Source of the DNA: Octopus vulgaris
Lineage: Eukaryota
DNA: 64,000 nt
Direction of reading: 5' to 3'
Assembly (NCBI GenBank): GCA_951406725.2
Contig: OX597838.1
Coordinates: 42,036,001-42,100,000, forward strand
Shown here: in pieces, positions 10,382 to 61,663 of the stretch
Layout of the letters: the number at the start of each line of letters is the position of its first letter
Position numbering within the stretch: position 1 is the first letter of the stretch
Made by a program: the position numbers and the translations under genes
The notes under the pieces: model-generated
Seen by the model: the letters and a program-made list of their open reading frames with translations, nothing else
Told to the model about the DNA's origin: nothing
Databases searched by the model: none

Positions 10382-12355
10382 TGTGTGGGAGACATGTAAT
10401 CCCTTCAATCTCTCTCTCTCCCCCTCTATCTCTAAATGCATTGCACAGACTTTCATAAAACTCTATCATTCGATATTTGAGTTGGTTTCATTGAAATCTT
10501 TTTGTTGAATAATTTAAATTAGATTACACTCGAAACCATAAACCCTTCCTAGCAACACTAAGTTCTGGCTGGAAGCTTCTAAATCGTTGCTTTACCTGCT
10601 CAATATAACAACCAATTTCTAAGCTATCTTCAAAATGAAGGTCATATGTTAGGTCCAAAATCTCGATGATAATTCATTTGGAGGGGAATCGATGAGAGTC
10701 GGTAGAGCATCTCCTGAAACACTTTGCTGTGTTTAGTTCTGTTCTGACTTCAAGACTTTTCATCATCTTTACCTTTCAGCTTTACAAAGCCAAAGCAATG
10801 AGTACCAGTAATATGCTGAGAGGCAATTCAATTGATTCTATCCTTTATAAATTTTGTGGCCTTGGGCCAATAAAAGAAATCAATATTTGCATATTTAACA
10901 ACACACAGATTATATATATATATACATATATAACACACACATCTGTTTAGTGTTGGAAGAGAGTACTCAATACCAAAGTAGGGATTAATAACATTTTTAT
11001 TTTTGGTAGAATTGTTCTTTGGCTGAAGACCCTGTGTATCTGCAGGCAAAAACTCAGAGTAATAAGAGACGGACCTGACCAAAATATATATACACACACA
11101 CATATATACAAAAATACACGTCTGTTGGTGTAAAATAATCTTACCTACACCCAAGACAGAGACAATTTGATACATCTGCCCTCTTCACGACCATTTTTTA
11201 AAATATTTTTTTTTTCTTTTGAAGAAATAATAATAAAATATTTTGCTGGCTTTCAAAAGTTAGTTGATTCCATCAGTTTGTTCATTAAGCTAATTATGTT
11301 AATCAGTTAAACCTCACAAGTTTTTAACTCTACATTAATTACCTTGATTTGGAAATCCGATTTTAGATTTTACTGTTAAAAAAAAATTTTTTTTTTATTT
11401 TTTGGAGTAAAGCATGGCTGTAGGGTTAAGCAGCTTGCTTTGCAACCAAAGGGTTTTGGGTTCAGTCCCACTGTATGGCACCTCGAGCAAGTGTCTTCCA
11501 TATGCCTTTTGAGAAAATTTGGTAGGTGGAAACTGTGTTGATGCTCCATTGTGTATGTATGTGTATATACGTCTCCATACACCTACATGTGTGAGTTTGT
11601 TCTCCGCACCACCTGCGTTAGTTTATTTATACACCTGTAACAGTTCAACAAGGGACCAACAGAATAAGTACCAAGCTTAAGAGTCCTGGGGGTCGATTTG
11701 TGCGACTAAACCATTCGAGGCAGTGCCCCAACATGGCCACGGTTCAATGATTGTAAGTTTAAAAAAAAAAAAAGGCAAAACATATTTAAAATTTGACCAA
11801 ATTTGAAAACATTTCTCAAAAATTAAAAAAAAGCCAAACCCACACAGAAAAAAAAAAAAAAAACCAAATTGTTATATTTTAATTTTTTTTGTTTGTTTTT
11901 AATGGTGAGGTGAAGTGAAGAATGAACCAAGTAGAACAATAATCTGTTTTACTTTTCTTGGTGGTGGGAGATTTCGGGGGTTATTATAGAAAGTATTTAA
12001 TTTCTACACAAGGTACTATATTTATTTTATCATTTTTCCAGCCTCCCCCCCACACCCACTTGTGTACGTTTGTCTCCCCCCCCCCCGACCCAAAATACAT
12101 TTTACTGTTATTTCATTTTATGTCGTTTTCTTTCAAAATTCCACCTTCTCGCAGTCAAACCAAACCTGCTTTGAAATTGGTATTGCCAACACTGCCTGCA
12201 AAATTCCATTCTTTTAACACATCATGTCCGTATGGAAACCTAAAGAAAAAGAGAAAAGCAAACTTTTATTCATTGCATTATTCCATAATCTAATGAACAG
12301 AAAGATCTTTTACGAATTTATTGTATGTTTCTGCAAATATTTTCCCTCTTATATT

Positions 12356-12561
12356 CTTTTCTACTCTAGGCACAAGGCTCGAAATTTCTGGGGAGAGGGC
12401 CAGTTGATTAGATCGCCCCAGTACGCAACTGGTATTTAATTTATTGACTCCTGAAAGGATGAAAGGCAAAGTCGACCTTGGCAGAATTTGAACTCAGAAC
12501 GTAGCGGCAGATGAAATACCTCCAAGCATGCTAACGACTCTGCCAAGCTTGCTGCCTTTTG
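12356..12561 (-). mobile_element. SINE with 12-bp TSD
   Basis: TSD ccctcttatatt at 12344-12355 and 12562-12573. Same family as 34447-34665. Confidence 0.8.
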
Positions 12562-13457
12562 CCCTCTTATATTAAAATGCTTAAGACAGATTCCTGTGGC
12601 GTGAACAATCTGTCACATTGCAGAAAGGGGGATGGTAAGAGATTCAAACAGAGGCTATTGGTACGCACACAGGTGACACCTTAAAGTGGAATATACATGA
12701 AATCAGCTTAATATTCATTTAAACACATCAACATAGACTGTAAGCAAAGGTGTATTGGTCTAGTAGTTAAGCTGTTGTGCGCACACTGATAAGGTTGTGG
12801 TTTCAATTCTTGAACTGAGCAATACATTGTGTTCTTGAGCAAAACACTTCATTTCACATTGCTTCAGAAATGAGTTTCAAAAATAACTGGGCAGTTCACC
12901 CTGTGACAGACTAGCTTCTCGTTCAGATGGGGACAGTTGTAATTACCATGGAAACTGGGTTAAGTCTCAGTCTTATGAGATGTGGGGCACCCAACTGACC
13001 AACAATTATTGGTTTCAAATTTTGGCACAGGGCTAGCAATTTCGGGGGGAGAGTTGATTATATTGGCGCCCAGTACTCGACTGGTACTTAATTTGTCGAT
13101 CCCAAAAGGATGAAAAGCAACCATGGCAGAATCTGAACTAAAAACAAAGATGGACAAAATACTGCCAAGCTCCCCCCCCCCCCCAGCAATGCTATCGATT
13201 CTGCAAGCTCAACACTTTACAGGCCTCCATATATTGCCAAGGGTAGAGAATTGCTGTGAAGGGGCTCAGCACATGTCGTCTTTCATCCAGGCGACTTAGT
13301 GATGATGAATCACTATGTTGTGTACGAAAAGAATTGCATTTGGTTAATGCTGGGAAAGTCAGGAACCGGAATTTGTAGGGGGGGGGGGGCGAGAAGTAAA
13401 AGAAAACTGAGTGAGAGAAAGAAGAGAAAAGTTTTAGAAACTAAATCAGTTTTGCTT

Positions 13458-13587
13458 CTACTTACGTCTTCTCTTAAACATGACAACCATTACACAGAGT
13501 TTCGTATGGGGCGACAAATCAACAGGAATAGCTTTCACAGGGTAGAAAGCTTTACCTTTCATCGTCTGCGATTTCGGTCTCATCAAA
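13458..13587 (-). CDS. TRMT2A: TRMT2A-like copy A last (or penultimate) coding exon ([42 protein letters not shown])
   Basis: tttcttgttgcag acceptor. TAG at 13460-13458, overlapping a perfect gtaagt donor at 13465-13460. Confidence 0.9.
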
Positions 13588-16500
13588 CTGCAACAAGAAA
13601 ACAGAATCTCTCTGTATTAAGCTTGGGAAAAAAGGTAAAATTGGAAACTGAAGATTAACCTCCAATATTTCTGGCAGATTCTATGATTTCTAAAAACACC
13701 ACTGAAGACTTCATCTTCCAAACTCTACCATTTGTTGACGTCTGTTTCTTTTACTTAAAGTAAGCTCAACAAGTCCTTGGTCAGGTTGTTCCTTCCACTA
13801 AAGACAGACTGGGGAAGGAAGCATTTCAAAGTTGATCGTTTTGTGGTTGATAGGTTTGCTTCTCAACAACATGGCTTCAGGTTCAGTCCCACAGCACAGT
13901 ACCTTGGGCAAGAACCTTCTAATATAAACCTAGGGCCAATCAAAGATGTGTGTGTGTTTACATGTGCTTATATGGAAGTGTGGCAGTTGTTGTGGTTGTC
14001 AGTTTCTGCTGTCAACAAATTGATCACTCGAAAGACACAAAGGGCCTTTGAATCTGCATGAAATAAGAGATCCCTTATTTGAAGAACAGGTTAAAGGTTG
14101 GCACCAGGAAAGGCATCCAGCCGTAAAGCAATATTTCAAATAACCCATCCAAGCACGGAAAAATGGACAAACAAGTCTATTTATTACTTGGTCCAGCGAT
14201 TCAATCATTCAGAAAATGATCGGGGGGTGGGGGGAACAGAATTTTAAAAAGCAGAATAATAATAATAATAAAACGTATGAATAGAAGAACTAAGGCAGCT
14301 GAAAGAGTAGTAATGATGTAAATGCCCCAACATCTAACAAAAAAAACTTACTCAGTGAAATTCTGAATGGCAGCCACGGGGTTACACGAGATGTAGATCA
14401 CTCGATGGATGAAATGACAGCGGCGAAGGGCATATATCACTTTGCTTTCTGTAAAACAAACAGGAGAAACATCAACAATGTCAACAACAACAACTTACTG
14501 AATAGCTGCAGTTGCTTGTGAAGATTTAGGACAATATTCCAGAGTGATGTAGAGATCCAGCAAACTGGGATTAAATGTGCATTACGTTGATAAACACTAG
14601 GTTGTCAGTCGAATTAAGGGCTGCAATTAAGATTATAAGTTTTCATACCAATCCACCTCAGACCATCCTCCCTCATTCTACGATAAAAACTTCTTTCAAC
14701 CCTTCAGTATTCAGATTAAATGGAATTATAATTCTTATCTTTGTTGTTTTGAATTAATCAGGCATTATCTGGTTCCTTTGAGATTTTGATGATGTGATTG
14801 TATATTTTTTGAATGACATTGCAAGGTAAGTGTGAGAGACCCAATCTGGTTGGTTTGAACATAAAACGGAGAATATTTTGGGCTGGAATTGGCCAGTTTA
14901 AATGCGAAATTAAAATCTTCCATCAAAATTTCATTTTATGTTGGAAACATCAGCTTAATAATGGACGTAGGTTATTTTATAAAATTTTTCATTATTTTCA
15001 AAATTAAATGAAACTGAGTGTATTTGGAGAGAAATATGGCAGCAAAGGAGCTACCAATGGTTTTAGTGACATCAATACTTCCGCTCGCACTCAGGTCCTC
15101 TTCCTGAATATGTTGCATTGTACAACGTCCAGGAATAACAAACTGATTGCTGTGTGCAAGTGTTGATGGAAATTTAAACTGTAGGAGAGAGATTAATTAG
15201 AGCAGAGGATGAGACGGCATCATGCAGTGGCAGATTGTGCAGCATAACAATAAGGTTAGGGGTGAGAGGCTGCATCTGGCCAGCTTGAACCTAAAACAGA
15301 ATATTTGGGCCAGAAGTGATTGGTTTAAGAAACCCACAACCAGATAATCCAACATATCATTTTTTTTCTTTAAGATGGTAGGATGTGACTTGAAGAAGAT
15401 TCGGCTGTTATTTCTTGCAAGTCAAGCAACCAAATAGCAAAATTTAAAAAAAAAGAAAGAAAATTGAATACATTAACTTACGCATTTCAGCACAAGGTGA
15501 GTCGAGTACAGCTACTGCACTTTGACCTTTCAGCCACCGGTCTAACTGGTTGGTCACTTCCTCAGCCTTTGCATGGTGGAAGACAACATTAGTCACATCT
15601 AGAGAAGAGAATAACAGGTTGGAGTCATGAAAATCTGGATTTGTAGAAAGGGGCAGAAGCATCAGTTTAAACATTTGACAGTTGGCAGCCTTTCACACCC
15701 AAACCCCTTATTTTCTCTGCCCATGTTTACTATGTCCAAGTTAATTCTTGACAGAAAGGTTTTTCACCACTAATTAAAGACAGGAATGTAACACTGATGC
15801 CGGATCCATTGACTTGAAGAGTCCAATTCCAGCTGAAGGATAAACTTGCCATCAAAGTAAGGATTCTATCCACAGAGATTTCTTCCTCATTTACCTGAAA
15901 CCATGGAAACCAGAGATAAACACAGTCCAGTATGCACGTCTCTGGTCAGAACAGTGTAACACTGTGACATCAATACCATACAACACAAACTTGTAAGAAA
16001 GTTCAACTCATTACAGAGTTTGGAGCCAAATAATAGCTTAACGAACCCTTGGTAGCAACAGAAGAGACAACCTGGCTAAGAGTGGATTTGAACTTTTATA
16101 TCATCAAAAACTGTGAATTTATATTGAAGTACAAAGCAAACTGTGGAGCTGTTAATTGCAATAGGGAGTTTGTTGGCAGAGAGACATTTGGCAACGGTCA
16201 ACTCAAATTCTGGAGAATGGAGTTTGATGCTGTTTAAGTGGGTAGCTTTCTGCTCTCGCAACACAAAATAATGCCACATGAATCCACTGATCCCGTATTC
16301 CACCATTTAATACTCCATCCATTCAACACAACTCCTCCTGTCTTAAAGTGACCTTAAGAACAACAAAGTTATTTACTAAATTCTTTGTTTCTAAAATTCA
16401 CTGAATTAAAGAGTGTATTTCAACAGAAATACAGTGAGAAGAAGAAGGGAAATACCTACTCAAGAGCAATCGTTTCCCTTCATCAATACCTAATTCACAC

Positions 16501-18417
16501 TTTTCTATATAGAAATCAGCAACAACCTAGGACAGTGAGCAGTACAAAGGAATAAATTTATAGAGGAAGGCTGGGGCCAGGTAAATTGAGGGGGGGGGGG
16601 GAGGTCAAACAAAAATTTTATACAGTATTACTCTGGCACATAAGGGCTTTCAAACACCACCACCACCATCATATTTAATGTCCACTTTCCTGATGTAGCG
16701 TAATCGTTACCAGCACCGCTTCACCGGCACCTGTGTCGATGGCATGTGTAAAAGATTCGAGCAAGGTCGTTGCCAGTACTGACTGACTGGCCCCGTGCCG
16801 GTGGCACGTTAAAGCACCCACTACACTCTCAGAGTGGTTGGTGTTAGGAAGGGCATCCAGCTGTAGAAACTCTGACAGATCAAGATTGAAGCCTGGTGCA
16901 GCCATCTGGTTTGCCAGCCCTCAGTCAAATCGTCCAATCCATGCTAGCATGGAAAGCGGACGTTAAACGATGATAAAGTCTTTCCTGTTGCCAATGAAGT
17001 TCATATTTCTTCATAGCCAGACATGTTTTTGCAGAAGATTGGAAATGAATGATGTTCATTTGCAACAATGGTGTGATGTCGGGGACAAAGAAACCCTAAC
17101 ATACATAACACACACACACACACACACGATAGACATCTTTCAGTTTCCGTCAACCCAATCCACTAACTAGGCTTTGGCCAGCCCAGGGCTATATTAGAAG
17201 ACACTTGCCCAAGAAGTTACACATTGAGATTGAACCCAAAACCATCTGATTTGGGAAGCAAGCTTCTTGACCACACAACCACCCTTGCATCTATATCAAC
17301 ATACAAAAATAAACCAAAGAAATGATTGTATTTACTGTTTAATTCAGCATTCTTCTTTGCTTCCTCGATGTTGGCAGCCCACATATCAACAGCGACAACA
17401 CTTTTCACCCTCTGAAACAAACAGGAGAAGACAACGATACATGGAGGAGAAGAAGAGAAAATAGTAGACGAGGGTTGAGAAGGAGAATGACTAAGGTAGC
17501 AGGGAGGCAGGTGGTGGTGGTCAGTTGGTGAAATGGCCAGCTTGATCGAGGAAATGCTTGGTGGCATTTCTTGGATCTTTTTACATTCTGAAGTCAAATT
17601 CTGCTGAGGTCTACTTTGCCTTTCAGGGGTCAACAACATAAAAGTACCAGTTAAATACTGGGGTCATTTACCCTAAAGTTGCAGGCCTTGTGCCAGAATG
17701 TGAAACAATAGTAGAAAAAATCCTTGCAACCAGCAGCTTTTCTTCTGCCATTTCAATCCAACGGAAGCAAGTCAAAGAGTCTTTTTTTAATTAAATTAAT
17801 TACTCTTTTATCAAAATGATTTGATAATATTGTGTTCAACAGAAGGTGGGTGGGATGGTAGGTACCACAGAGCACAATGGTTGAATGTGCTGAAGCTTTT
17901 AATTTCAGGCCCCAAAATTCTGAGATCAAATCTAGTCAAAATTGACTTTGGAATATATTTTATCAGCTTTAATTCTTTAGAATTTAAACCCGCCATATTC
18001 GGCCCAAATATTTTACCTGTTTTGTGCTCAAGCCAGTTAGATCTGGCCCCTCACACCTACCCTACAATGTCATTCTAAAAATATACAATCACATCATCAT
18101 GGTCTCAAAGCTATGAGATTAATTCATGACAATGGGATTAAAGAAGCATTACATTGGACAGAATAAATTCGAATACCAAAGGATTAAATGAATGAAAGGC
18201 AGTTGTGGAATGTGGTTTGGTATTAATGAATCAACCTGGGTAGGTTACAGGGTAGATTTTAACAATGGAAACAGAACTAAGTTCGGTTGTTGGTTTTTAT
18301 GTGCATGTATGTATATTTGTGTGTATACGCAAGTGTATACAGTATATATGCCTATATATATATATATATGCATATATATATATACATATATATGTATGTA
18401 TGTATTTGTGTGTACAG

Positions 18418-18448
<31 letters not shown>

Positions 18449-18663
18449 AATATATGCAAGTAGACTAATGCCTTGATATGTGAGTTAATTTGTACCCGGA
18501 GACCGCTCGTATGAAAACATGTAAACACTTGTAAACCTGGGATCTCGTAAAGTGGGGTACTTGTAAAGTGAGGTATTACTGTATAAATATATATTTCTGG
18601 GTAGAAATGTATAAAGTATATGTGGGTGTATGTATAATTGTGTGTGTGTGTGTGTGCAAGTGC

Positions 18664-18695
<32 letters not shown>

Positions 18696-20739
18696 AAGCT
18701 GGAGAAAATGTGAAGCTGATTCACACAGACCAGCCAACAACAATGACAACAATGTGATTAGCTAACCTTGGCAAGACTCAGTGCCACAGTGCCGGTGCTG
18801 CAGCAGATATTAAAGACAATGTTATTTGGTTCTTCCAAGCATAGATCACCAACCATCGTGTAGAGGAGGGCTGCAGCAGGGTTGTTGACTAAAAGAAAAA
18901 AAAATTGCCATCACAATCATAATAAGTTTAACACATTTTTAAATACTGGTCAAAGGTTTAATTAAAATATAATGAACGTTCTTTAAACTATGTTGGTGAG
19001 GGTTAGAGGAGTCATTAGCCATTGTATTGCTATTCATTTCAAACTTTTTGTTAGATGCTTTCAACCTAACGTTTTAAGGCCTCGACCCAGTATTCCTCTG
19101 ATGTAATACAACCCATTTGAACCCATGACCTTGTGATATCAGTGATCACATTTGTATTCAATAATTATGAATGAGAGACATTCATGCATTATTTCTTTAA
19201 CAAAATCTCATCCTCTGAAAACAATGTCATCACTCTCTAGAAAAAAATTTAAGATGTTTGGATCATTTGAGAAAGTTTGGCACAGAAACATTTCCCATAT
19301 TTAGTTGCCACTGCCAAGTATTCAATTCGTAAACTACAAAGATATAAAGTCTACTTAAAGAACTCTCGGATTATTTCATCAACTTTTATCTCCGTTACAT
19401 ATAAAGCAGTCTTTTGCCTGTCTCCAAAATTCGACAACAGGTCCATGTCTCAACACACACACGTGACATGTACTTAACAAATTCCAACAACTAACAAAGC
19501 TTTGTCCTTAATATGTGACACATATCCCAACAGTGTGTGTGTGTGGGGGTGCACGTGGCTTACTGCTTCAGGCTCATGGTCTCAAGGTGGTGAGTTCGAT
19601 CCCTGATAGGGAATTGTATCCTTGGGCAAGACATTTTACTTCACGTTGCTCCAATCCACTCACAGCTGGCAATTCAAAAAGGGCCGGTCTTGTCACATTC
19701 AGTATGTCATACTGAATCTCCCTCAGAACTATGTTAGGGGTACACGTGTCTGTGGAGTACTCAGCCATTTGCATGTAAATTCCACGAGCAGGCTGTTCCA
19801 TTGATCAAAAACAACTGGAACACTCATTGTCATTATAACCAACAGAATGCTAATCATACAGCACCAACAACAACAACATGAATCCCCTCGTTAAGCCACC
19901 GACAAATCCAATTTAATTTATTTCATCCTTATGTAGTTTTTCAATGTTATTAAATTTACTGATCCCATATTGATCTTAATATCAACAAAGTAATTAAAGA
20001 ACTGCTGCATTCTTCAGGAAATCCTTTTCATATTTTTTTCTCTAATTCATTCGTTTGCCAGCTAACATCATTATCATTTAACGACTTCCTTCCATGCTGG
20101 CATGGATTGGATGGTCTTTTGATTTGGTGCAAGTCAGAAGACTACATCAAGTCCTACTCTCTGTTTTGACAGGGTTTTTACAGCTGGATGCCCTTCCCAA
20201 CACCAGCTACTTTGCACAGGGTGCTTTCTATGTGGCACCAACACTGGTGAGGTCTCCAAGTAACTTACAAGACAAAGATCCCTCAACTGAGAGGGCTTTT
20301 GGCCAGGAGATGAGAGGTTACACTATAACAGATGCACAGAAATAGGTGTGTTGCAGTAAGGAGGTTCATGGCTTCCCCAGGTGGTGAAGATGCAGCACAA
20401 CATGCACACAAGTTACAGGGAGGTGTTAAGTGAAGTGGAAAAAAGGATCGAATAGGGTGAGTGGGTGGGTCAGTTGCAAAAGGAAAGTGAGAGATAGAGG
20501 GGAAGGGGAGGATACAGTGAGTGGACACAGGTCACCTGACAAATCTCATCCATTCTCCTTGTTTTTTCTTTGTCGGAGAAGCAAACATGTGCAGCCCTGA
20601 ATAAGCTCAAGTTGCAATTGCATGGTTCTGGGTTCAATCCCCCAGTGCAGTACCTTGGGGGGAATGTCTTCTAGTATAACCTTGGACCAACCAATGCTGT
20701 GAATGAATTTGGGAGATGGAAACTGAGTACAAGTTCATA

Positions 20740-20804
<65 letters not shown>

Positions 20805-23800
20805 TGCATGTGCACGTGTGTGTTGTCTTTGTCCCCTCCACCACTTGACAGCCAGTGTTGGTTTATTTACATCCATGTGACTTAGCAGTTTGGCCAAAGA
20901 GATTGACAAAACAAGTACTGGACTTAATAACATAAGCAGAGGGGTCAGTTGCTTTTACTGAAACGGTTCATTGATCAGAGTCCAATGAGCAAAACAAGGA
21001 AGAACTCTGGTCAGACTGGAATTGGTGGAGAAGTAAAAACTTGCGTAGACACAAAAACCGGAGAGACTTACATGAGAAGAAAGTGTCAGGATAGATGTGG
21101 AAGCTGAGTTCTAGTAAGACTTCTGTGATACACTGAAACAGACACAAAAGAAAGGTCATTAAAATGGGACAGAGGTAATTGTAATTAAGAGAGAAGAGGA
21201 CTCCTCTTGCAAGAACACAAAACTTTAAATAATTAACCCATTCGTTACTATATTGCTATTGAAATACACTAGTTTTCTTTAAATTGATTTTGAAAATAAC
21301 GAAAAATTTAATAAAATAACTGTCATTATTAAGCTGGTGTTTGGAACTTAACATGAAATTTTGAAGAAAGGCATTTTGTACAGAGTCAAGGGCGGAAAAG
21401 ATTGAACATGGCAAAGGATGCATTCACCATTTTGTTGCCATATTTTAAGTAAAATTACATAATGTGTGATTCAGTTAATATGAAAGAAGCAATCTCTGGC
21501 AGGTTGATATCAAAAGAGTTTAACAGGGATAGGGGTTTATAGAACAGGGATAAATTAAAAGGAAAACTAATTGATGAATTTTATCAAAGCCAAATTTTCT
21601 TTTTCTTTCCACAGATCAATTTTTTAAATTGTACAAAAGATGGATCATACTAATTATTTAAAAAAATATATTTATGCTAAATAGATGTTTTTTCCTCGTT
21701 AATACTTTAATTGTTGTAGGTTAATTTTTTTTCTGTTTTCAATTTCTCAAGATTAGTTTTGTAAGGAAAATGACAAAAAATAATCATGGAAAGAAGTCAA
21801 TGTCTGAAGAAAACAAAAGAAACAAGCGATTATTACCTTCTTCCCCCATAAATGCTCATTGACAGCATGTTGTCTGCAGCTGCCAAGTCTGACAAAGGAG
21901 AGAAAAACGTTTAGAGATGAGAAGCAGAATAGTTCAAAGGTTTAAATTGGAGGTCAGGTTACATCCTCTCTCGTTTACTTCATACAAAAAAAACAAAAGG
22001 AAAGATTTAAAAAAATGAAAAGACAAAAATATAGAAGGTAAAATAGAATAAAACACTATAAAAGAAAAAAATTGCAGGGGAAAAAAAAGGGAGAATAGAA
22101 AGGAAACCACCAAAGTATTCCCCTAGATACAAGGTAAGAGTAAGCGAAAAGTAAGCCCTACCCATCGTACAGAAGTAAAACAAAATAAGGTGTGTGTATG
22201 GGGTGGTAGAAACACCTGCTTTGTTAACCCCAAAGCTGCAAGCAAGAATCATATTCAATAAGAACTTCTGAAGTAATACATTATTTCATAAGAGAGGATG
22301 AATTGTGTCAAGCGTTTTGAGATGCTGGAGCAAAGAGTCCTGTATAGATTAACCCTTTAGTATTTAAACCGGCCATATCCGGCCAAAATAGTTAATCTGT
22401 TTTATGTTCAAACTGACCAGATCCAGGCTCTCACACCTACCCTACAATGTTATTCTACATTAAGTAATTACACCATCAAGATTTTGAAGATATGAGATAA
22501 TGCATGATTAATTCAAATCAATAGGAATCAATAAGCATTATGTTTGATAGAATAATCAGAACACTAAAGGGTTAAACAATTTCCTTCCTGTATGCAAAGA
22601 AGTTCAGCTGAATTGGTTGAATACGAGACCAAAAGCCGAGGCTATTGAAAGCCTTGTGGCTTTTAGCCATCAAAGTATTCCCAATCCTAATGTCAAGAAC
22701 CTGTTTGTCTTTCTCAGTTCCCTATAATTAATTAAATTCTCTAATTTGAGAAGAATGCCAACCATTGTTGGGAGGTTGTATACTTAACCCAATAAGAAAC
22801 TATTTGTCTTTATTCACGATGAAATGTCTACAATCATATCAATTTGTGTGTACGTATCAATATACAGGTACCTGACTTACAAAACCAACTAAAAAACTGG
22901 AGTCAATTCATTCAACTAAAACCCTCCAACATGGCACCCCAATGACCAATAAAAGACATATATATATATACACACACACACACACATGACAGGCTTCTTT
23001 CAGTTTCGGACTACCAAATCCACTCACAAGGCTTTGGTCAATCCAAAGCTGTAGCAGAAGACACTTGCCCTAGGTGCCATGCAGTGGGATTGAACCCAGA
23101 ACCATGTGGTTGGGAGACAAGCTTCTTACTACACAGGCACTTCTGCGCATGCATGTATGGATGTAAACACACAAACACACTCACCTGTTACTCAAGCATC
23201 TGAAATAGAGGGATGTCACACCACACTGGACTCCATCACCATCAGAAAAATACTCTGTCATTGCAGCTTTCTCAGCATCCACTTCATCCTGCAAAGGAAA
23301 AACAGCAAAATCAACTCGAGTCACCTTTCTCCGTTCTAATTCTTCCTTCTTTTATGAGTTTCCAAGAATCTAAAGTTTCAATGAAAGATTTTTCTTCCAT
23401 TTATTTTTTTTTTTGCGAATGTGATATAAAACTAATAATAAATCTCTGAACGAGATGTAAACAGTAACCGCTCGACAACGTAAAGTATACTAGCCATATC
23501 AATATGGCTAACCACTAACACCCACCCTTAGTGGTTAGCCATATTGATATGGCTAGTATACTTTACGTTAATATAAAACTATTTTTTGATTTAATTCAGC
23601 AGAGAGGCAAAGCATCTGGTTCAAAGATGAAGGGAAAAGCCTCAAGGACCTTGACCACAGCACTCCCAGCATGAGCCTTATATATTATATATTAATATGT
23701 TCCTGATACCTATGGTGTGGGGGGGGGGGGAAGCAAGAGAGACAGGCAGAGAGAGAGAGAGAGAGAGCATCATCATTTGATATTCAGCTTTCCCTGCTTG

Positions 23801-26800
23801 CAGAGGTCAGGCAGAATTTGTTGAGGCAAATTTTTCTAGGACCTGTCACCAACCTTGTCCTATTTCCAAGCAAGGTAAATGGCCAGACAAGTTTTTACAC
23901 AGAAGATTGGAAATGAATGACATCCCTTGTATGATGGTGATGTTTATTTACAATCAGGATGTCATGTGGAGACAAAGGGGGTGCACACATACAAGCATCT
24001 AAACATGACAGGCTTCTTTCAGTTTCCGTCTACCAAATTATAGCTCACAAGGCTTTGGCTGGCCTAAGATGCCACACTGTAGGACTGAACCTGAAACCAC
24101 ACGGCTGGAGAGCAAGTTTCTTAACCATAAAGCCACACGTAAAAGACAAGGCAGAGAAAAAAAAAAGAGAAAAATACTTACGTCTGAGAGAAACTGAGCA
24201 TAAAAAACAGGAATGATCATGATATCGTTTTGGCTGGATGTGCGGACAATCAGCTGTCTCCAGTGACCATCATGTGACTGGTCATTATAGACATCGTACT
24301 GGCTCTGACGGACATACTGTTGGAATACTTTAGCAATGAGTTTCATGGAATCGGGGAGATTGTCACAGGCATACGGTTCGCCAACAACACTAGAACCATC
24401 ACGGTAACTGCCGACCCGAAAGCCAACTATTCTTTCTTTAGTGCCATTTGAGCTGCTAGCAATGGTGAATTCAGATTTATTGCGATAAGCATTCAAAACA
24501 GGTGAAGGCCTTATCTTTTCGATTTCACAAAGAACTCCAGAATGGTTCTTCATCTGTTCCTTGAGCCAATTCCTCCATTTTGGACATGTGCGGTGAACTT
24601 CCCAACTAAATTTCACCATGGCATCTCTGACATCAGAAGCTTTACGCTGAAAAAAATTACAAAAAAGAAAAACAAATAAACAAAAATAAAAGAAAAACCC
24701 TCTTTTTACTCTTTTACTAGTCTCAGTCATTTGACTGGCCATGCTGGAGCACCGCCTTTAGTCGAGTGAATCGACCCCAGGACTTATTTTGTAAGCCTAG
24801 TACTTATTTTATCAGTCTCTTTGGTCGAACTGCTAAGTTACGGGGGATGTAAACACACCAGCATGGGTTGCCAAGCGATGTTGGGGGGACAAACATATAC
24901 ATATATATATGATGGACTTCTTTCAGTTTCCGTCTACCAAATCCACTCACGAGGCTTTGGTCAGCCCAAGGCTATAGTAGAAGACACTTGCCCAAGGTGC
25001 CACGTAGTGAGACTGAACCCAGAGCCATGTGGTTGGTAATCAAGCTACTTACCACACAGCCACTCCTATGCCTATTAGCATTGTTTAATTATTCTTTCTT
25101 ATTTTTAATTATGTTTTATATTTTATCATGATTTTGTGAAGAATGACACCACTAGTCCCAAGTTTTTAATTGGACATTAATTGGTTGGTTCATTGAATTT
25201 CTGACAGCAGGAATGAGAAGGGAGTGTCTGTGCAACTCGGGAGAAGAAATACCACAAGGCATATTCTTATTCAAAGCAATTTTTTTCTTTAGTTTATCAA
25301 AGCTTATATCCTTTACCAAAGAATGTATACACACACACACACACACACACAATGTATATATACGTGTGTGTGTATGGGTTATAAAGTCAGACAAAATATT
25401 GCTGAGCATCTTGCCAGGTATGTTAATGGGTCTGCCAGCTCATTACCTTAATAACGATGATGATGATGAAGAAAGCAAGAACGATTTCCTACATTTGGAG
25501 GTAACAAATTTGTAGCAGCTGAGGGGAGGGGGCGGGAGTGGTCAACTTGTAATGGCGGGGGTAATCAATATTGATTGACTGTCATCAATAATAACAAAGA
25601 ATCAGAAGATGACTAATGCCAGGCTCAAAATTAGTAGAAAATGGTCCAGTCCTAAAAGGGGAGTGTTTCTCGACAACTTGCACAAGATTGTCACTTTACA
25701 TCTAACTCAACCAATGCCTCATGCTCCATAACTTGAGAGAAGCCCAGGATGGCACCCCAGGGCACATTCTCACCCTCCTCAACATTAGCCAACTTCATCT
25801 TCTCAAAATCTGGCAACAGTAATTCCATCCTTATATTGTTCCTGTAAGACATTCCAGCCTGGCCTTGCTGTAGGCCAGTTCAGGTAACCTATGCAAAGGG
25901 GAATGTTGCAATAACCAGTGCAAAAGTAAGAGGACTGACGTGGATAAAAGACATTAATACTAACACTACCAAAAAAATTTTGAAAAGAAACCAACATAGA
26001 TGTCATGGTTGGCAAGGCGAGAAAAAAAACAAAACAAAATATACAAAGCAAGTTCTACCTACCCTGAGCTGATCTTCATATGGTACATCACAAAATGGCA
26101 ATAAGGCTCGTTTAACCCTAAGAAAAATGGATAAATTAAAAAAAGGAATCATTAATCACAAAGTCAAATGTCCATTAGATAGATGAGTGGTTGCCAACCT
26201 GTGATCCAAGGACGCCTGGTGGTCTGCAAGCTAAATTCAAAATATCACACACACACAAACTAGAGTACACATGACCTGCTGGGTCACTGACAGTTCAGGT
26301 TATAAAAGACTGGAACTGATTGCTTTTGAAATGAAAGTTAATTTTATGAGGATTCACTTAAATAATTCAATTCGTTTGTGTCTTCTGCTTCACAAGTTCA
26401 TGTTTAAAGGTTTCATTGCTTATTTACAGCATCCAAAAGAAATGGAACTTCCAGGATAAACTTGAACCCCAGTGACAGCCTTTATTCAGGGCTTGTGTGC
26501 AGCACACTTGTACCAAAATGCAAAAGGAATTGCTATGCAACACAGACAGAAAATTAAGGGAACCGATTTTCCCATTTCAGGCTTATGTTACTCGGAGTAT
26601 TTTTCCATTATTAGATTACGATTATAAAGAAATTTGTGGAGAGAGGAGTTTCAGATCAGGAAGACCAAATAAGTTGCAACTAATCTGTTTCGACGGGGAT
26701 CCCTGCCCACAACATTTCTGTTTTTTAAATCAGCTGTTGAAATGATGTGGGCAGGGAACATCTTTTTATGAATAAGGAGTTTTTAAACTATCTTTTGTAC

Positions 26801-29800
26801 AACTCCCTCACCTTCCCATCATCATCATGCTCTGAACTGATTTGGGCCAATTTGTTTTTGCATTTCAAAACCATGGGAAGAACCTTTTTGGTAAAAAAAT
26901 TTTTTTTTAATTCTTAATATTTTCAGAAGAAAAAGTGAGTGATTTAAAGGAGATTTGGCAATTGTTTCTAGCACATCTCATTTCTTTTTCACTCTTGAAA
27001 GTATTGGTGCCTATCAATATTCTTCTCTCCATATGCTATTAAAAAAAATTATGACTATTTTTTGCAACCCCATTCCCTGCCCATGATAGTCTCTGTTTAT
27101 AAATTAAAATATTGGAGAGCCTGAGGTCATTGCTGGCATTTATCCACAATGGTATGTAAACAATAATTTATTTTAACAGCATACTTTTCTGTTAGAAAGT
27201 GTTTTTTCTTACACACACGGCCTCACTTATTTGAGGTGGGGCTAAAAATTTAAATTACAATTTTTTGTTGTTGCTTATATTCCACCAATGCGTGTGTTAC
27301 TTCAGCATCATTATTCCATAAAATGTATTTAATGAGAGAAAAATATTGAGAAAACATCAATACATGTGAGAGTGAAAACAGAAGGTTGTTTGCAATGTGC
27401 TAGAAACAACAGCTGAATCTCCCTTGAATCACATACCCTTTCCTCTGAAAATATTTACAATTTTTTTTTTTTTTAACCAAAACAGCTTCTCCCATGGTTT
27501 TTAAGTTAAATTCTTATATACTCTGAATTCACAGCATCCAAGCAGTATTTGTTGAAAATTTTGTTAAAAAGCATTCATTCTTCTGAAAGTTATGAGGCAA
27601 CAAAGTCTGTGGGGTACACATCTGTAGTTATGCCAACAAAACTATCCAGTGTTCACAGTAAAGGGAAACAACTCCAGGTTTTACTGCTTAAATTTGTGGA
27701 ACCCCCAGCAAAAAACCCCCGCAAATCACAGGAATCTGTGGTCCGGTTTACGCGAACTTTGCTTTATTCCATTTCTATTCACATTTCAGAGCATTTTTCC
27801 ATTATGCGCTGGTTTGGCAGACAAGCAAGCAATAAGAAAATGTTAGTAGTAAATAGATATACACATAAGGATAAGGTTATTAAAAGGGGTCCATGGGGAA
27901 GCTCATTTAAATAAAAGGGGTCGTTGCTAGTGAAACGGTTGGAATCACTGAGATAGATAGATGATGATGATGGTGGTGGTGGTGGTGGTAGGATGGTTGT
28001 GGAGTAGATAAATTGCCATAAAGCACCTAAATCATAATTATTCTAGGTGCACTGCCTTATATACTCAACAAGGAGACAGTTATAGGATGTGTCTATGATT
28101 TCCTGGCCAAAATGTTGACATTAGGAGCAATTCCTGCTGCTTTGCATTCCATTTTGAACTCAGGAATCACTTAAATTTACACGTGCCCCCCCCCTCCGCC
28201 ACCAAATCTTAAATTTGATCAGCCTAAAATAAACAAAAACAGTAAAAATAAAAGCATTAATCAGAAATGAATTGACTGAAATTCCCACTTTGAAATGGTG
28301 TCAGACTTGAACAGAGTTAAATAAAAAAATTTATTTTCTCCAGAATAAGTGTCAAACTTTAGAACCCCCCCCCCCCACCAAAAAAAAAACCCCACAATCA
28401 TCTTAGCATCAACCTAATCCACCTGACAATATTATCTGTTGAATACTAAATCTAAAAGTGGGATTTAGAATAGAACAGCTGAAAAGAGTATGGTACTGGG
28501 GGGTGGGGGGTGCTGGTAGAAATCTGGCCAACAAAGTGAAAGAAAAATTAAAGAAAAACAAAAACGGTTTCCACTTACTTTTCGCCGGCCGTGGTAATTT
28601 CATCTCGCAAGTCTATGGATATTTTACTTCTCTTTGACTCTGATACATCCTGAGATGATCCTGCAACAAAATACCAGGATATTCGTTATTTAATAATTGC
28701 AATGATTAACACGTGTCATCAATAACAGCCTGAAGCTGACCAAAACCTTGTGAATGGATTTAGTAGATGGAAACTGAAAGAAACCTGTATATATGTGTGT
28801 GTGTGTGTGTGTGTGTCTGTGTTTGTCCTCCACCACTGCTTGACAACTGGAGTTGGTGTGCTTATGCCCGTGACTTAGTGGTTCAGCAAAAGAGACTGAT
28901 AGAACAAGTAGCAGGCTTTAAAAATATAAGTCCTGGAGTCAATTTGTTCGACTAAAACCCTTCAAGGCAGTTGCCCCAGTATGGCCACAGTCAAATGACT
29001 GCAACAAGTAAAAGGAAAAGAAGAAAAAAAAAAGAGTTGAAAATAATTAGTGAGATTTCTTTGAACTAATTTGGATGAATTTACAGATCATTTCAACATC
29101 AGCCATGAATTTAATATTCTCAGATTTATTTGGGGTTTTGCTTTATCAGGTCTTGAGGATTCCTTATTTTATTTTATTTCCTGAATTTTATAAAGAACAA
29201 CTTTGCACAGAAACACAACAAACATCTTAAAATGGAAAAAAAGACTCACAGAACTCAAAAGAAGTAAACATACAGCATGTGCTTGTGTCACGTGAAAGGC
29301 ACCCGGTCCACCCTGTGAAGTGGTTGGCATTAGGAAGGGCATCCAGCCTTAGAAACCAAGCCATATCAGGTGGGAACCTAGCACAGCTCTCCAGCTCTGG
29401 TCAAACCAGCCATCCTATGGCAGCATGGGAAATGGACGATAAATGATAATGATGATGACATTACCTCTAAACACTCAATCAAATCTCACTGATTACCATG
29501 GAGACAATGTCAACCAGACTGGAAAATATCCGGTTGCAAGGGCCGTGGGGAAAGAGTTAACATTAATGAATAAAGAATGAGATAGAAAATATCTTACCTG
29601 CGACATCTTTACGCTTAGCAGACAGGTTCTCAAAGCTTCGATCGGATGTCTATGGAATAAAAGAAAATAAATAAATAAATAAAAAATTGGAAATTTGTAG
29701 GGATTAAACAATGTATGCTTATTTCATGAACCACGGAAGGATAAAAAGCAAAGATGATTGGGATCTTTTCGGTTTGAACGGCAGTTTTTTCTAGCAGTGT

Positions 29801-31303
29801 CATATGAAATTGTCACCCATAATTATGACCCTAGTATCGATCTATTGCATTTCAATCTGTTTTAGGGTTGGGGTTAGTTAGGGTTAGGGGTGGGGGAAGG
29901 GTATCTTTTTTTCTTCACAAATGTAAATAAACCCAATCTGTTTCTTAAACGAGGGACATATTCATACGGCACAGAATGTTTTCACCTCAATAGATGGTCA
30001 TTGATTGGTTGAAATTGCCGAAATGCAAGAAATTAAAGACCAAATATCTTACAAACTATAGAATTTTCTCAATAAGAAAAAGATGTTTTATAAACACATT
30101 CTACGAGTATGCGAAGTTTAACATATTTTAGTTACCTAGAAATTATGTTAAAAACTGCCTTTCAAACAGAAAAGATCTGATGATTGCAATAGAACTTGAA
30201 CTCACATTCTAAGGAAAGCAAAAAAAATTCTTTAATATATCAAAACGTTTAATTCATTACCCAACCATTTCTACCAATAGTTATAAGATGTATCACAGCA
30301 ACTGGCAGAGCGTCTCTACCCCCCCCCACCGCAGGTCTATGCACTCCCCAAAGACAACGTATTGTAGTTATCTCCCTTGGTTCGTGTTAGTCACGTGGAA
30401 GGAGGGGCTGTTGGTGACATACTTCTGCCACTGTTCATTAGTATGTAGGAATGTAATTAACTGATAGCTAATGTGATGGCAAAGTCCTCCTCCTCACCCG
30501 GTCGATTAGTTTAGCTAAAGTCTGCCAGCAACTCAATATCAGCCACGTTACTAACGAGCAAATAGGGACCAGAAGCACATTCCCATTTCAGCCTTTACTT
30601 CTGACGCCGTGGCACAACAACTGTGCATTTGTGGTTCATAAATGTAATTGCAAAGAATTGTTCTGCTTCTGATTTGCACATCACACATCATTCAGCAGAC
30701 ACGCAAGTATATTACACAACATCCTCGAGTAGATAGGTGTTCCTCTTCTCCAGCAAAACACCTCTTCCTGTCCTTCTTTCCCGGCACAAAACTACCCCAT
30801 GCAATACTGCACCCTAGGTCAGTAAAGGGGTCTTATCTTGCAAGTCACTTGGTGACCCTACTAATGCTGGTACTATGATATAAACACCCAGTACTCTCTG
30901 TAAAGGGGTTGGCATTAGGAAGAGCATCCAGCTGTAGAAACACTGCCAAAGCAAACACGGGAGACCCTGCCAAAGCAGACACGGGAGACCCTGCCAAAGC
31001 AGACATGGGAGACCCTGCCAAAGCAGACATGGGAGACCCTGCCAAAGCAGACACGGGAGACCCTGCCAAAGCAGACACGGGAGACTTAACACAGTCTTCA
31101 GGCTTATCAGATCTTGTTGAACCATCCAATCCATGTCTGCATGGAAAATGGACATTAGAGGATGTTGATGATGTGTAACAGGGAAAGACAATTCCCAGGA
31201 CCCTTCTCTCAGCAGGATTCCAACATTTAAAAACCACACAAAAGCATGAAAAAGGTCGACTTACGTTGCTGTTATTGTTTCTGTTGGTTTCGGCCTCCAT
31301 CAT
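13458..31303 (-). CDS. TRMT2A: TRMT2A-like paralogue (copy A), 13 coding exons, about 483 aa, divergent and probably catalytically impaired tRNA (uracil-5)-methyltransferase homolog
   Basis: join(complement): 31303-31265, 29649-29598, 28660-28579, 26117-26063, 24646-24182, 23288-23185, 21888-21837, 21132-21072, 18888-18767, 17411-17336, 15598-15482, 14448-14352, 13587-13458. All introns are GT-AG with compatible phases; 1452 nt, no internal stop. Trm2 hallmarks: [31 protein letters not shown], PVDLxPHT. Confidence 0.9.
14352..14448 (-). CDS. TRMT2A: TRMT2A-like copy A exon with catalytic Cys motif VI (VIYISCNP)
   Basis: 97 nt. Cys codon at 14386-14384. 89/97 nt identical to copy B exon 46555-46651. 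Confidence 0.95.
15482..15598 (-). CDS. TRMT2A: TRMT2A-like copy A exon with degenerate motif IV ([12 protein letters not shown])
   Basis: 117 nt, matches copy B exon 48013-48129 ([12 protein letters not shown]). Confidence 0.92.
17336..17411 (-). CDS. TRMT2A: TRMT2A-like copy A exon ([25 protein letters not shown]), motif II
   Basis: 76 nt, matches copy B exon 49915-49990. Confidence 0.92.
18767..18888 (-). CDS. TRMT2A: TRMT2A-like copy A exon with degenerate SAM motif I ([11 protein letters not shown])
   Basis: 122 nt, matches copy B exon 51707-51828 ([11 protein letters not shown]). Confidence 0.92.
20745..20801. repeat. (TA)n microsatellite
   Basis: About 28 units. Many other (TA)n, (CA)n, (GA)n and (CAT)n tracts occur, e.g. 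9023-9052, 18300-18455, 57460-57560 and 57733-57771. Confidence 0.95.
21072..21132 (-). CDS. TRMT2A: TRMT2A-like copy A exon ([20 protein letters not shown]), motif X with Q>S
   Basis: 61 nt, matches copy B exon 52836-52896 (ISPDAFFQ). Confidence 0.9.
21837..21888 (-). CDS. TRMT2A: TRMT2A-like copy A exon ([18 protein letters not shown])
   Basis: 52 nt, matches copy B exon 54477-54528. Confidence 0.88.
22353..22571. mobile_element. piggyBac-type MITE (TTAA target, CCCTTTAG termini)
   Basis: ttaa|ccctttagt ... actaaaggg|ttaa. Degraded relatives near 14697-14900, 17969-18187, 47770-47996 and 50600-50792. Confidence 0.75.
23185..23288 (-). CDS. TRMT2A: TRMT2A-like copy A exon ([34 protein letters not shown])
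   Basis: 104 nt, matches copy B exon 55982-56085, GT-AG. Confidence 0.9.
23477..23569. repeat. Perfect 42-bp inverted repeat with 9-nt loop
   Basis: 23477-23518 is the exact reverse complement of 23528-23569. Confidence 0.97.
24182..24646 (-). CDS. TRMT2A: TRMT2A-like copy A fused exon (155 codons, RKASDVRD...FYAQFLSD)
   Basis: tttttttcag acceptor, gtaagt donor. Contains [18 protein letters not shown] and [10 protein letters not shown]. Equivalent to five exons of copy B. Confidence 0.95.
24705..25072 (-). mobile_element. tRNA-derived SINE (near full length)
   Basis: Head with A/B-box-like ggctgtgtggtaag...gggttcagtc and body gggcaagtgtcttctactatagcc...ggaaactgaaagaag. Related copies near 353-500, 11415-11760, 20600-20950, 22985-23145, 28735-29020 and 41350-41640. 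Confidence 0.8.
26063..26117 (-). CDS. TRMT2A: TRMT2A-like copy A exon ([18 protein letters not shown])
   Basis: 55 nt, same size and phase as copy B exon 63919-63973. Carries the P-x-x-x-x-x-Y-E-x-Q-L motif. Confidence 0.9.
28579..28660 (-). CDS. TRMT2A: TRMT2A-like copy A exon ([28 protein letters not shown])
   Basis: tttgttgcag acceptor, gtaagt donor, 82 nt, phase 1 to 2. Confidence 0.8.
29598..29649 (-). CDS. TRMT2A: TRMT2A-like copy A exon ([17 protein letters not shown])
   Basis: ttttattccatag acceptor, CAG|gtaaga donor, 52 nt, phase 0 to 1. Confidence 0.75.
29761..30178. mobile_element. Same MITE family, copy 2 (inserted into an older SINE-like repeat)
   Basis: Same TIRs and body. 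Perfect TSD gatgattg at 29753-29760 and 30179-30186. Confidence 0.92.
30943..31085. repeat. Minisatellite, 24-bp unit CTGCCAAAGCAGACACGGGAGACC, 6 copies, inside an RTE tail
   Basis: Direct reading. Confidence 0.95.
31265..31303 (-). CDS. TRMT2A: TRMT2A-like copy A, first coding exon ([13 protein letters not shown])
   Basis: Acceptor tttaattttag at 31310, exon 31309-31265, donor gtaagt. Phase 0 matches the next exon. First in-frame ATG is at 31303. Confidence 0.6.
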
Positions 31304-31359
31304 TGAAGTCTAAAATTAAAATTAAAGCAAAATATGAAATTTGAAAGACAGAAACTCAA

Positions 31360-35777: not shown

Positions 35778-37460
35778 CATCATCATCATCGTTTAACATC
35801 TGCTTTCCATGCTGGCATGGGCTGGACAGTTTGACTGAAAACTAGTAAGCTGGGGGGGGGGGGTGCACCAGATTCTGATCTGATTTGGCATGGTTTCTAC
35901 AGCTGGATGCCCTTCCTAATGCTGACCACTCCAAGAGTGTAGTGGGTGTTTTTTATGTGCCATTGACCCCGAGACTGGTACCAGCCATAACTATGGACTC
36001 ACTTGGCTTAACAGGTCAACACAAGCACAGTATATCGCCAAGGGTCTTGGTCACTTGTCACTGCCCCTACAAGGCCCAATGCTCAAACAGTGCTTTTTAC
36101 ATACCACCTCCACGAGTGCTAGTCAGACGGCACTGGCATCAGCCATGACGATTTTATTCAGTTGGACAGGTCTTCACAAGCACAACATATCACCCAATGA
36201 TTGAAAGATGCTTTTAATGACCCAGTTACACAACTACAATCTCACTTCGCTTGATGAGTCTTCTCAAAGCATGGCACATCTCCAAAGGTCTCGGTCACTT
36301 GTCATTATCTCTGTGCTTTACTACTTCGTTCCATGTCTTCCTGGGTCTACGTCTTCCACAGGTTCCCTCCACCATTAGAATGTAACACTTCTTCACACAG
36401 CTGTCCTCATCCATACGCATCACATGACCATACCAGTGCAATCATCTCTCTTGAGATGCTTACACTCTGTTGTACATGCACACTGACATTACACATCCAG
36501 CGGAGCATACTAGCTTTGTTTCTTCAGCAGACACAGCCCATGTTTCACGGCTGTTGGCATACGGTCTGCTTTTCACTCTGAGCGAGACCCTTTGTTGCCA
36601 ACAGAGGTAGGAGTTCTCTGAACTTTGCTAAGCCTATTCTCAGTTATGCTCTCAGAGCAACCAGCCCCACAACTGATTTGGTTACCTAGGTAATGGAAGC
36701 TATTGGCTACATCTAGTTTTCGCCCCTGACATGCAGTGGAATCTATTTTTTGTACATTTTTGGTGTTTATTGCTCCTGAGCATCTGCCACATACAAAAAC
36801 TGCCTTCCTGGTTAGCCTTCCTTTGACATTGCTGCACCTCTTATGTGTCCATAGCTTACACTAGGTCCATCTTATGGCGTTTCTACCTACACCTTTTCTA
36901 CAGATTGAGCAGGGTCATCTACCTGAAAGGATTTGTGATTTGTCCGCCCTCCTACATACTAAGACTTTGGTTTTTGTTAGGTTAACTCTAAGGCCATTCG
37001 ATTCTAGACCTTGCTTCCACACCTGAAACTTTTTCTTTAGTTCTGGTAAGAGGAAGCTCATCAGCATAGAGGAGCTCCCGGGGCAGCCTGTCTTGAATTC
37101 CTATTATTGCTTGGAGGACTATGATGAACAAGAGGGGGCTGAGGATTGATCCTTGGTGAACCCCTACATGAACCTCAAATTCTTTGCTATACTTGTTGCC
37201 AGGTCTCACCAACCATTCATCTATCCCTAGTTTCTGCAATGACCACCAGATAAAGGATTGTCAGCAAAAACCAAGTGCAGAGGTTTATCTTTGGCGAGAT
37301 ATTTCTCCTGCAGCTGTCGGACCAGAAATGTAGCATCAGTGGTGCTTCTCTCTGGCATAAACCCAAACTGCTTCTCGTCTAAACTAATTCTCTCCCTAAT
37401 TAGTTGGGCTATGACCGTTTCTGTAATTGGGTTTGATATAATCAACTGGGTCCTCCACAC
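35778..37460 (-). mobile_element. 5'-truncated, degraded RTE-type LINE (RT domain to (GAT)n tail)
   Basis: Broken frames QFGFMPERSTTDATFLVRQLQEKY, GVHQGSILSPLLFIIV and ELLYADE. 3' tail catcatcatcgtttaac at about 35778. Confidence 0.85.
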
Positions 37461-40615: not shown

Positions 40616-40715
40616 ATTAATGTCGTCTTGCAATATCGAGACTACAACAAAAACGGAGCCATTCACTGCGGAGACACCGCGCTCAGCAGTGAGAGGGCGG
40701 CGAAGGTGGTGGCGG
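40616..40715 (-). other. Putative 5' UTR exon 2 of TRMT2A-like copy A
   Basis: CpG-rich non-repeat block bounded by (gt)n-ag and AAT|gtaaga. No in-frame ATG. Contains a 6-codon uORF (ATGGCTCCGTTTTTGTTGTAG). Confidence 0.45.
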
Positions 40716-40731
40716 CTACACACACACACAC

Positions 40732-40762
<31 letters not shown>

Positions 40763-43851: not shown

Positions 43852-44359
43852 TTAAGACTGCATTGCCACTTCACAATCACTGTTGTCTGGTTTACACACC
43901 ACCTCCGTTTCACACACTTGCTTTGGCTCGCATACTTTCTCTGGTTCATTAACTGCCTCCGGTTCGCAAACTTTCACTGGTTCACAGACTTGTTTTGGTT
44001 CCTGAACTGCTTCCGGTTCACAGACTTTCTCTGGTTCCTGAACTGCCTCTGGTTCACAGACTTTCTCTGGTTCCTGAACTGCCTCTGGTTCACAGACTTT
44101 CTCTGGTTCCTGAACTGCCTCTGGTTCACAGACTTTCTCTGGTTCCTGAACTGCCTCTGGTTCACAGACTTTCTCTGGTTCCTGAACTGCCTCTGGTTCA
44201 CAGACTTTCTCTGGTTCCTGAACTGCCTCTGGTTCTTGTTTTCTCTCAAACATCACAACGAGTTCACAGTGCTTGGTATGTGGGAAAAGGTCGACTGGAA
44301 TGGCTTTCACAGCAAAAAAAGGTTCTCCTTTATTCCTCCGTGACTTCGGCCTCATTAAG
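43852..44359 (-). CDS. TRMT2A: TRMT2A copy B last exon ([19 protein letters not shown] plus repeat tail)
   Basis: tctttttgcag acceptor. Catalytic-base Glu codon at 44265-44263. TAA at 43854-43852. Confidence 0.93.
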
Positions 44360-57730: not shown

Positions 57731-57773
<43 letters not shown>

Positions 57774-60700: not shown

Positions 60701-61663
60701 TAAGAGGAAAGAAATTCATAAGACACAGCAGAGTTTTACATCCTGAACTCAATTGCAGCCAGTTTCTCCGTTTTGTAAAAGTCTGCTGTCCTTCAGTCAT
60801 TTCTCTCTTTTCAATTTTTCCCCCGAAGAAGGACCGAGTCCAAAATGTTGCATTGTCCACTCCTCACAGCAAGTTCACTAGATTCTTTTTTTTTTATTGA
60901 TTTTACTGTATAATATAAGTGTTGCTGACACAGACCAATGCCAGCCTCTTTAGGAGCCTGATCGTGAAGAGAAAGAAATTACTTACGGAAGGCTGAATGG
61001 CAAGAATCTCACAAATACTATCTGAATAGAGTCGTCTGTAAAATAAGAAAGAAATCAAATAAATGATTCAGAAGATGAAACTGGGAAGCCAGTAATTGGA
61101 TGAAATTACTTATGTTAATTACTGAAAGATGCCATTGTCCTAAAAGACAATAGTTAAATTACTATGAAACTATTAATTGTAGTAAATCCCTAACGAATCT
61201 CTCCACAACACTCCTCCCTTGTTCTCCTAAACTCTTATCTACCCACTTACCCAGGCAAACCCTGTCTACCCCTTCAATTATACTCACCCCCATCACAGTA
61301 ACTTGAGAGTATGCTCCAACATATCTTCTCCACCCTCTATTCTCTCACTCACTCTTCCCCTGTTTTTCTATCTGGGGTAAAACGGGTCTCTCCTCTAATG
61401 CAGGAAACCCTTTTTGTCCCCCTATTCATACCCCAACTTCTCATCGTATTGAGTACAAAGCCACCGTACTCAATACTACACCCCAACTTACTTGAGAAGT
61501 TATGCCATGTAAAAAAAAACGCCCAGGCCCCTCAGTAGAGTGGTTCGTGTTAGGAAGGGCAACCAGTCAAAGGAGACAGTAGAGCTTGGCTAGTCCTCTG
61601 GTCTACCAGCTCCTGTCATACCGTCAAACTACACCGGCAAGGAAAATAAAACATTAGATGGAC

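Follow-up and report, generated by a model that had tools for sequence, protein, structure and literature searches.

Does the middle of copy A, one of two neighbouring TRMT2A-family genes of Octopus vulgaris, record a block of introns lost from this copy, or introns gained in its neighbour, and if a loss, by which route did it occur? The window, i.e. the whole stretch of 64,000 nucleotides that was analysed, contains the two genes as a tandem pair, copies A and B, both on the minus strand (Table 1). A single exon of copy A corresponds to five exons of copy B, which are separated there by the introns J1 to J4.

Structure of the tandem pair and the fused exon

That the 465-nt exon of copy A equals the copy B exons of 95, 49, 64, 107 and 147 nt (462 nt) had been proposed from the sequence alone, and the sizes, introns and junctions were confirmed exactly. 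The protein alignment also bore out the claim that one extra codon near the third junction is the only length difference; in O. bimaculoides this codon encodes Asn. Removal at J1, J2 and J4 is precise at the splice sites without any indel, and J3 is one codon longer. A spliced alignment with a profile free of cephalopod proteins recovered every junction of copy B and placed none inside the exon of copy A. Beyond the fused block, eight exon sizes match exactly between the copies (55, 104, 52, 61, 122, 76, 117 and 97 nt), as the sequence-only reading had stated. Its further statement that all other comparable introns are shared did not hold, because the 3'-terminal intron of copy A is absent from copy B. 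Nine of the 13 introns of copy B in the window are retained in copy A, in addition to upstream ones, and the A/B intron pairs have no alignable sequence beyond short repeats.

Table 1. Features of the window, with positions counted from its first base.
Feature	Position	Strand	Remarks
Copy A, coding exons	12214..31309	(-)	14 exons, 489 aa; derived TRMT2A paralog, no RRM, degenerate active-site motifs
Copy A, upstream exon	40616..40735 (edges approximate)	(-)	tblastn of P0002, P0005, P0006; in O. vulgaris and O. bimaculoides models
Copy B, canonical TRMT2A	43852..63973	(-)	14 exons in window; 5' RRM exons beyond base 64000
Copy A, fused exon, 465 nt, 155 codons	24182..24646	(-)	CAG acceptor, GTAAGT donor, stop-free translation
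Copy A, former intron sites	J1 24552/24551, J2 24503/24502, J3 24436/24435, J4 24329/24328	(-)	alignment to B
Copy A, extra codon beside J3	24437..24439	(-)	Lys; sole indel in A/B protein alignment of fused block
Copy B, exons of 95 and 49 nt	62457-62363, 61035-60987	(-)	counterparts of fused exon
Copy B, exons of 64 and 107 nt	59466-59403, 57681-57575	(-)	counterparts of fused exon
Copy B, exon of 147 nt	57207-57061	(-)	last of five counterparts; total 462 nt
Copy B, intron J1, 1327 nt, phase 2	61036..62362	(-)	GT-AG; not in A; not polarised
Copy B, intron J2, 1520 nt, phase 0	59467..60986	(-)	GT-AG; not in A; common to outgroup contig L075
Copy B, intron J3, 1721 nt, phase 1	57682..59402	(-)	GT-AG; not in A; common to L075 and Sepia-type ORF P0138
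Copy B, intron J4, 367 nt, phase 0	57208..57574	(-)	GT-AG; not in A; common to P0138 and 14 other genomic fragments
Copy A, 3'-terminal intron	12240..13465	(-)	not in B; exon/intron structure comparison
Copy A, 97-nt catalytic-cysteine exon	14352..14448	(-)	homogenised tract (with B) spans exon base 15 to donor site
Copy B, 97-nt catalytic-cysteine exon	46555..46651	(-)	91.8% identity to that of A
Copy A, first intron, decayed reverse-transcriptase fragment	36991..37260	(-)	Pfam RVT_1, E 9.5e-5, 22.6 bits, cut-off 29.6

Over its 489 aa, the spliced protein of copy A does not differ from O. sinensis XP_029650873.1 or from the corresponding part of O. vulgaris CAI9741051.1. Copy B agrees with the O. 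vulgaris record at positions where O. vulgaris and O. sinensis differ; its motifs are canonical, and the RRM is present in its O. sinensis ortholog. In the public O. vulgaris record CAI9741054.1, the model of copy B runs out of frame past the 122-nt exon and ends early, unlike copy B in the window, whose full-length frame is open (57104-62320 and the region around 50000). In O. sinensis, isoform X3 of copy B skips exactly the 147-nt exon. Where copy A has its last intron, copy B reads on into a repeat tail (43852-44235, minus strand), in which 7.2 copies of a 36-nt tandem repeat encode a Cys- and Glu-rich sequence. O. sinensis has three units fewer, and the tail of Argonauta B consists of a different repeat with the same last three residues. 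An interspersed 400-bp repeat occurs in three copies (897-1298, 29758-30177 and 45495-45880; 83% alike).

Copy A adjoins copy B in Octopus and, judging by the consecutive accessions of the two proteins and the equal length of their contigs, also in Argonauta. Copies A and B fall into a single clade with the decapod gene (100/100). A and B group together with 93/89 support in a tree to which Argonauta B was added, and removal of the homogenised exon described below leaves an open fork; AU tests on the order of A, B and the decapod gene rejected no arrangement.

It had been suggested that long reads or PCR across the fused exon might reveal an assembly artefact. Four of 24 listed sequencing runs were examined, three of the DNA type and one of the RNA type. 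One contig crosses the intron, fused exon and intron unbroken in each of the three DNA-type runs (24011-24737 in X2, 24074-24737 in X6, 24013-24658 in X8), which come from three studies with three organism labels. P0140, an ORF of the genomic type whose residues resemble those of O. bimaculoides, likewise continues through J1-J4 and enters intron-like sequence at J5. An artefact of assembly is thus refuted by independent DNA contigs that span the fused exon and both flanking introns, and the probability that it or mRNA contamination produced the fused exon is practically negligible. In the RNA-type run, the fused exon is intact and spliced to the next exon, so copy A is transcribed and spliced there. 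Because P0140 also runs through J1-J4, the loss predates a split within Octopus.

Polarity of the missing introns

Had outgroups lacked the four introns, they would be gains in copy B. Three of the four, J2, J3 and J4, were found in outgroups, which makes them ancestral, and copy A has lost them. The animal-like outgroup contig L075 has introns J0, J2, J3 and J5 at the same codon and in the same phase as copy B, its next exon also has 104 nt, and it lacks J4 as well as J1. It was the only locus to share any of J0-J5 among the best 80 of 364 matches in a metagenome scan, whose ranking favours intron-less loci and whose matches were mostly intron-poor or transcript-like. In a Sepia-type genomic ORF (P0138), the exon between J3 and J4 encodes the same residues as Sepia pharaonis TRMT2A (37/37), and the translation on either side is intron-like.

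For J4, a query with the 147-nt exon of copy B returned 122 representative matches (33 of the J4 type, 23 starting later than J4, 55 continuing in homologous sequence and 11 uninformative). After exclusion of 17 J4-type matches with fewer than 15 upstream residues, 16 remained. In all 16, 15 or more residues upstream of J4 are unrelated. In 14 of them, J4 is directly preceded by Gln or Lys, as is necessary for an AG acceptor, and 10 of these 14 go on with the Val at J5 that a GT donor demands; these are calls at the protein level from which the splice letters are deduced. One further short J4 fragment matches a protein of the tick Ixodes persulcatus. Most of the later-starting matches (20 of 23) are vertebrate-like and have a different boundary near residue 7. 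The intron positions are consequently not universal, as the vertebrate-like fragments and the lack of J1 and J4 in L075 indicate. Indels among 113 mostly vertebrate proteins marked no boundary at J1-J4, and a scan for the junction pattern of J2 yielded no viral and three bacterial stretches, none of them usable.

Two contigs from distant eukaryotes have introns at 3' positions of copy B (L024, 800-3400, at nt 1609 and 1823 of P0127; L016, at nt 1726 and 1823), which indicates that several TRMT2A introns are very old. A phase-2 intron of L024 lies two codons from J1 and was left uncounted, as this region aligns poorly.

J1 itself was present in none of the best 80 of the 364 metagenome matches, a sample ranked in favour of intron-less loci, nor in any fragment. 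We infer that it was ancestral like its neighbours. If J1 were instead a separate gain in copy B, only J2-J4 would have been lost together through cDNA. The absence of J1 from L075 and from those 80 loci would agree with such a gain, as would the one other intron by which A and B differ, which shows that gains or losses outside the block do happen. The inserted intron would, however, need to have landed directly beside the lost block, and L075 also lacks the ancestral J4, so that its missing J1 says little. A gain of J1 in copy B is therefore considered very unlikely.

Mode of intron loss

The exact joins and the adjacency of the lost introns fit a single recombination with the cDNA of a spliced mRNA. 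Most probably, one such event with cDNA of copy A's own transcript removed J1-J4. The sequence-only reading had arrived at partial processing of a tandem duplicate mediated by reverse transcription, and this is still the best explanation, with the polarity and the reality of the fused exon in its favour. TRMT2A would first have been duplicated in tandem at the DNA level, close to the root of the coleoids or of the octopods. In the germ line, a reverse-transcribed copy of the spliced mRNA of gene A would then have recombined with gene A, with an exchanged tract starting in the old 95-nt exon and finishing in the old 147-nt exon; J1-J4 would have disappeared all at once, with the introns on either side left in place. 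The extra codon at J3 may be a later insertion in a loop of variable length.

In the fused block, A and B have diverged at synonymous sites (pS 0.53-0.85) about as far as in the rest of the gene (0.73). The donor was thus not a recent transcript of copy B, which leaves copy A's own transcript or a very old event. As a mark of cDNA, A-to-G-type changes on the stem of copy A were counted and did not stand out in the fused block (1 of 17 versus 3 of 42 elsewhere, a comparison with little power).

Saturation of the synonymous sites makes one event indistinguishable from several by this measure. Evidence against a single event with cDNA comes from J3, which is not exact in length, from the excess of Argonauta A at the same site and from the missing cDNA mark; that the event took J1 along is weakened by the absence of J1 in the 80 best of 364 loci. 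At least two separate losses, either cDNA-mediated or by double-strand-break repair, could have occurred over a long time, with an imprecise one at J3. The length change at J3 in Octopus, which is larger in Argonauta, points in this direction, and the long stem branch of copy A (0.7-0.8 changes per column) would have left time for several events. On the other hand, adjacency is improbable under independent loss: four losses placed at random among 14 introns would form one unbroken block with a chance of 0.011, and for the three polarised introns among 13 the chance is 0.038, both values being post hoc for a gene chosen for this pattern. In addition, all nine other introns of copy B are retained in A, and microhomology at the splice sites of copy B is 0, 0, 1 and 2 nt for J1-J4 versus 0-2 nt at kept introns, present-day B being a poor proxy for the ancestor. 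Stepwise loss is hence regarded as unlikely, with some small chance of being correct.

At the protein level, Argonauta A (P0003) has seven extra residues exactly at the lost J3, compared with one in Octopus. This excess could be due to a tolerant loop, to imprecise loss or to an intron that was retained with its splice site shifted.

In a processed retrogene or a partially processed retrocopy, exons are joined in the form of the spliced mRNA. The joined exons of copy A have this form, but copy A keeps introns and adjoins copy B; with nine of 13 B introns retained and its tandem position, a retrocopy of the whole gene is excluded. The middle of copy A might also have been converted at the DNA level from a processed pseudogene located elsewhere, which would make the RNA step indirect. 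Paralogs at this locus do exchange sequence, as the homogenised 97-nt exon illustrates, and an old donor could have decayed. Against such a donor stands the depth of the fused exon (22-38 in X2, 46-123 in X6 and 5-13 in X8), which is near that of a single-copy intron (13, 43-55 and 3-13, respectively). Among the matches listed, no DNA piece joins the exons, a weak argument as it covers contigs only; the joint pieces listed were dominated by SINE contigs and contained no usable joints. A pseudogene donor is accordingly judged highly improbable.

The most probable reading, recombination with cDNA of copy A's own mRNA, draws no support from the putative RTE LINE relics at the locus, to which the sequence-only reading had appealed. 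Reverse transcriptase acts in trans. In the first intron of copy A, decayed LINE-like frames extend over 34109-38484, and one of six candidate frames has a weak match to RVT_1 below the Pfam cut-off, which is not evidence for the mechanism. Full-length RTE LINEs are transcribed in Octopus (PMC9115989), which speaks for the cDNA route.

The lost block covers nt 323-546 of the 1470-nt coding sequence, and every intron 3' of it is retained. The usual 3' bias is hence lacking, as had been remarked; the implication that this is unusual did not stand, since internal loss is documented (PMC2395259). According to Sharpton et al. (2008; PMC2395259), introns of Cryptococcus and other eukaryotes are often lost from the interior of a gene while those on the 3' side stay, and duplicates of rice genes are described as losing introns without a 3' bias (PMC1779517). 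With internal and unbiased loss already in print, the absence of such a bias in copy A is not surprising. Adjacent loss is a prediction of the reverse-transcription model (PMC3652778, PMC2395259), and 8 of 10 multi-loss groups reported for rat include adjacent introns (PMC3652778, Zhu and Niu 2013).

The mRNA-mediated losses described for rat and mouse (PMC3652778) resemble copy A in that adjacent introns are gone and the other introns and the locus are kept; copy A differs in its four introns, its tandem paralog and its saturated synonymous sites. The Cryptococcus cases (PMC2395259) likewise show a block inside the gene, spared 3' introns and adjacency from which one event was inferred, but they concern fungal orthologs with short introns, unlike the 4.9 kb of intron in this mollusc. 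Among the rice duplicates (PMC1779517), loss also occurred between duplicates without an overall 3' bias and was sometimes consecutive, although the consecutive losses described for rice affect the 3' end or all introns and are not internal as in copy A. The block loss in copy A is therefore an already well-described kind of event.

Active site and homogenised exon of copy A

TRMT2A, Trm2 and TrmA are m5U54 methyltransferases, and both copies match PF05958 (A 46.6 bits, B 68.9 bits, cut-off 23). TRMT2A is described as an RRM followed by a catalytic domain (PMC8759985); RRM_1 was detected in copy B (24.6 bits, cut-off 20.7) and not in copy A. The motifs of copy A are altered from FFQ to FFS and from DPPR to DSPC, and the Asp and Gly of motif I are changed. 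In these enzymes, Cys acts as the nucleophile and Glu as the general base (10.1101/797472). Copy B has both residues; copy A keeps the Cys, and the Glu is replaced by Val in Octopus and in Argonauta A. The position of the lost Glu aligns with one that is Gln in two solved entries of the RlmCD type.

Argonauta A (GAB1607961.1) has the same active-site changes as Octopus A, and the per-exon identity between Octopus and Argonauta (80-100% for A, 74-93% for B) shows that A is as conserved as B. From its conserved sequence and the shared losses in the active site, copy A is constrained but is probably a pseudo-enzyme and no methyltransferase. A comparable case is bovine TRMT2B, which is described as conserved despite a lost catalytic residue (10.1101/797472). 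There the missing residue is the Cys, which copy A retains; lost from copy A are the RRM, the motif Gln and the Glu.

The exon with the catalytic cysteine departs from the rest of the gene. Its 97 nt are far more alike between A and B than the other exons (49-74% identity), with no more than 3 differences at 21 synonymous sites, compared with 73% elsewhere (binomial 3e-8 at 0.73). At the protein level, the identity of A and B in this exon is 91% in Octopus and 84% in Argonauta, versus 41-68% elsewhere. The homogenised tract comprises 83 nt with three differences, and the flanking introns are unalignable, so that the homogenisation is confined to the exon. In O. sinensis, copy B has an A-type Ile in this exon where copy B of the window has Val; polishing cross-talk in that record is another possible explanation of this residue.

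Gene conversion, possibly repeated, is the simplest and likely reading of the 97-nt exon, and selection on the RNA sequence is an alternative account of the likeness. The donor may have been either DNA or cDNA. A more far-reaching proposal is that RNA-templated recombination acted repeatedly at this locus, so that one cDNA erased the four introns of copy A and further exchange with cDNA keeps the 83-nt tract of an active TRMT2A nearly identical to that of a conserved octopod pseudo-enzyme, which would bind or covalently trap RNA (Cys kept, Glu lost) and not methylate it. This is considered distinctly unlikely.

A literature search, with most subscription journals outside its scope, found no report of a TRMT2A duplication in octopus or other cephalopods. 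The block loss in copy A overturns no model. It provides a clean example of this kind of event, with three of the four introns polarised, in a mollusc whose introns are long, and the presence or absence of J1-J4 in copy A of the various octopods is a datable marker for one event versus stepwise loss. To the specialist, the side findings may matter more, i.e. a constrained paralog with a rewired active site and a homogenisation confined to a single exon.
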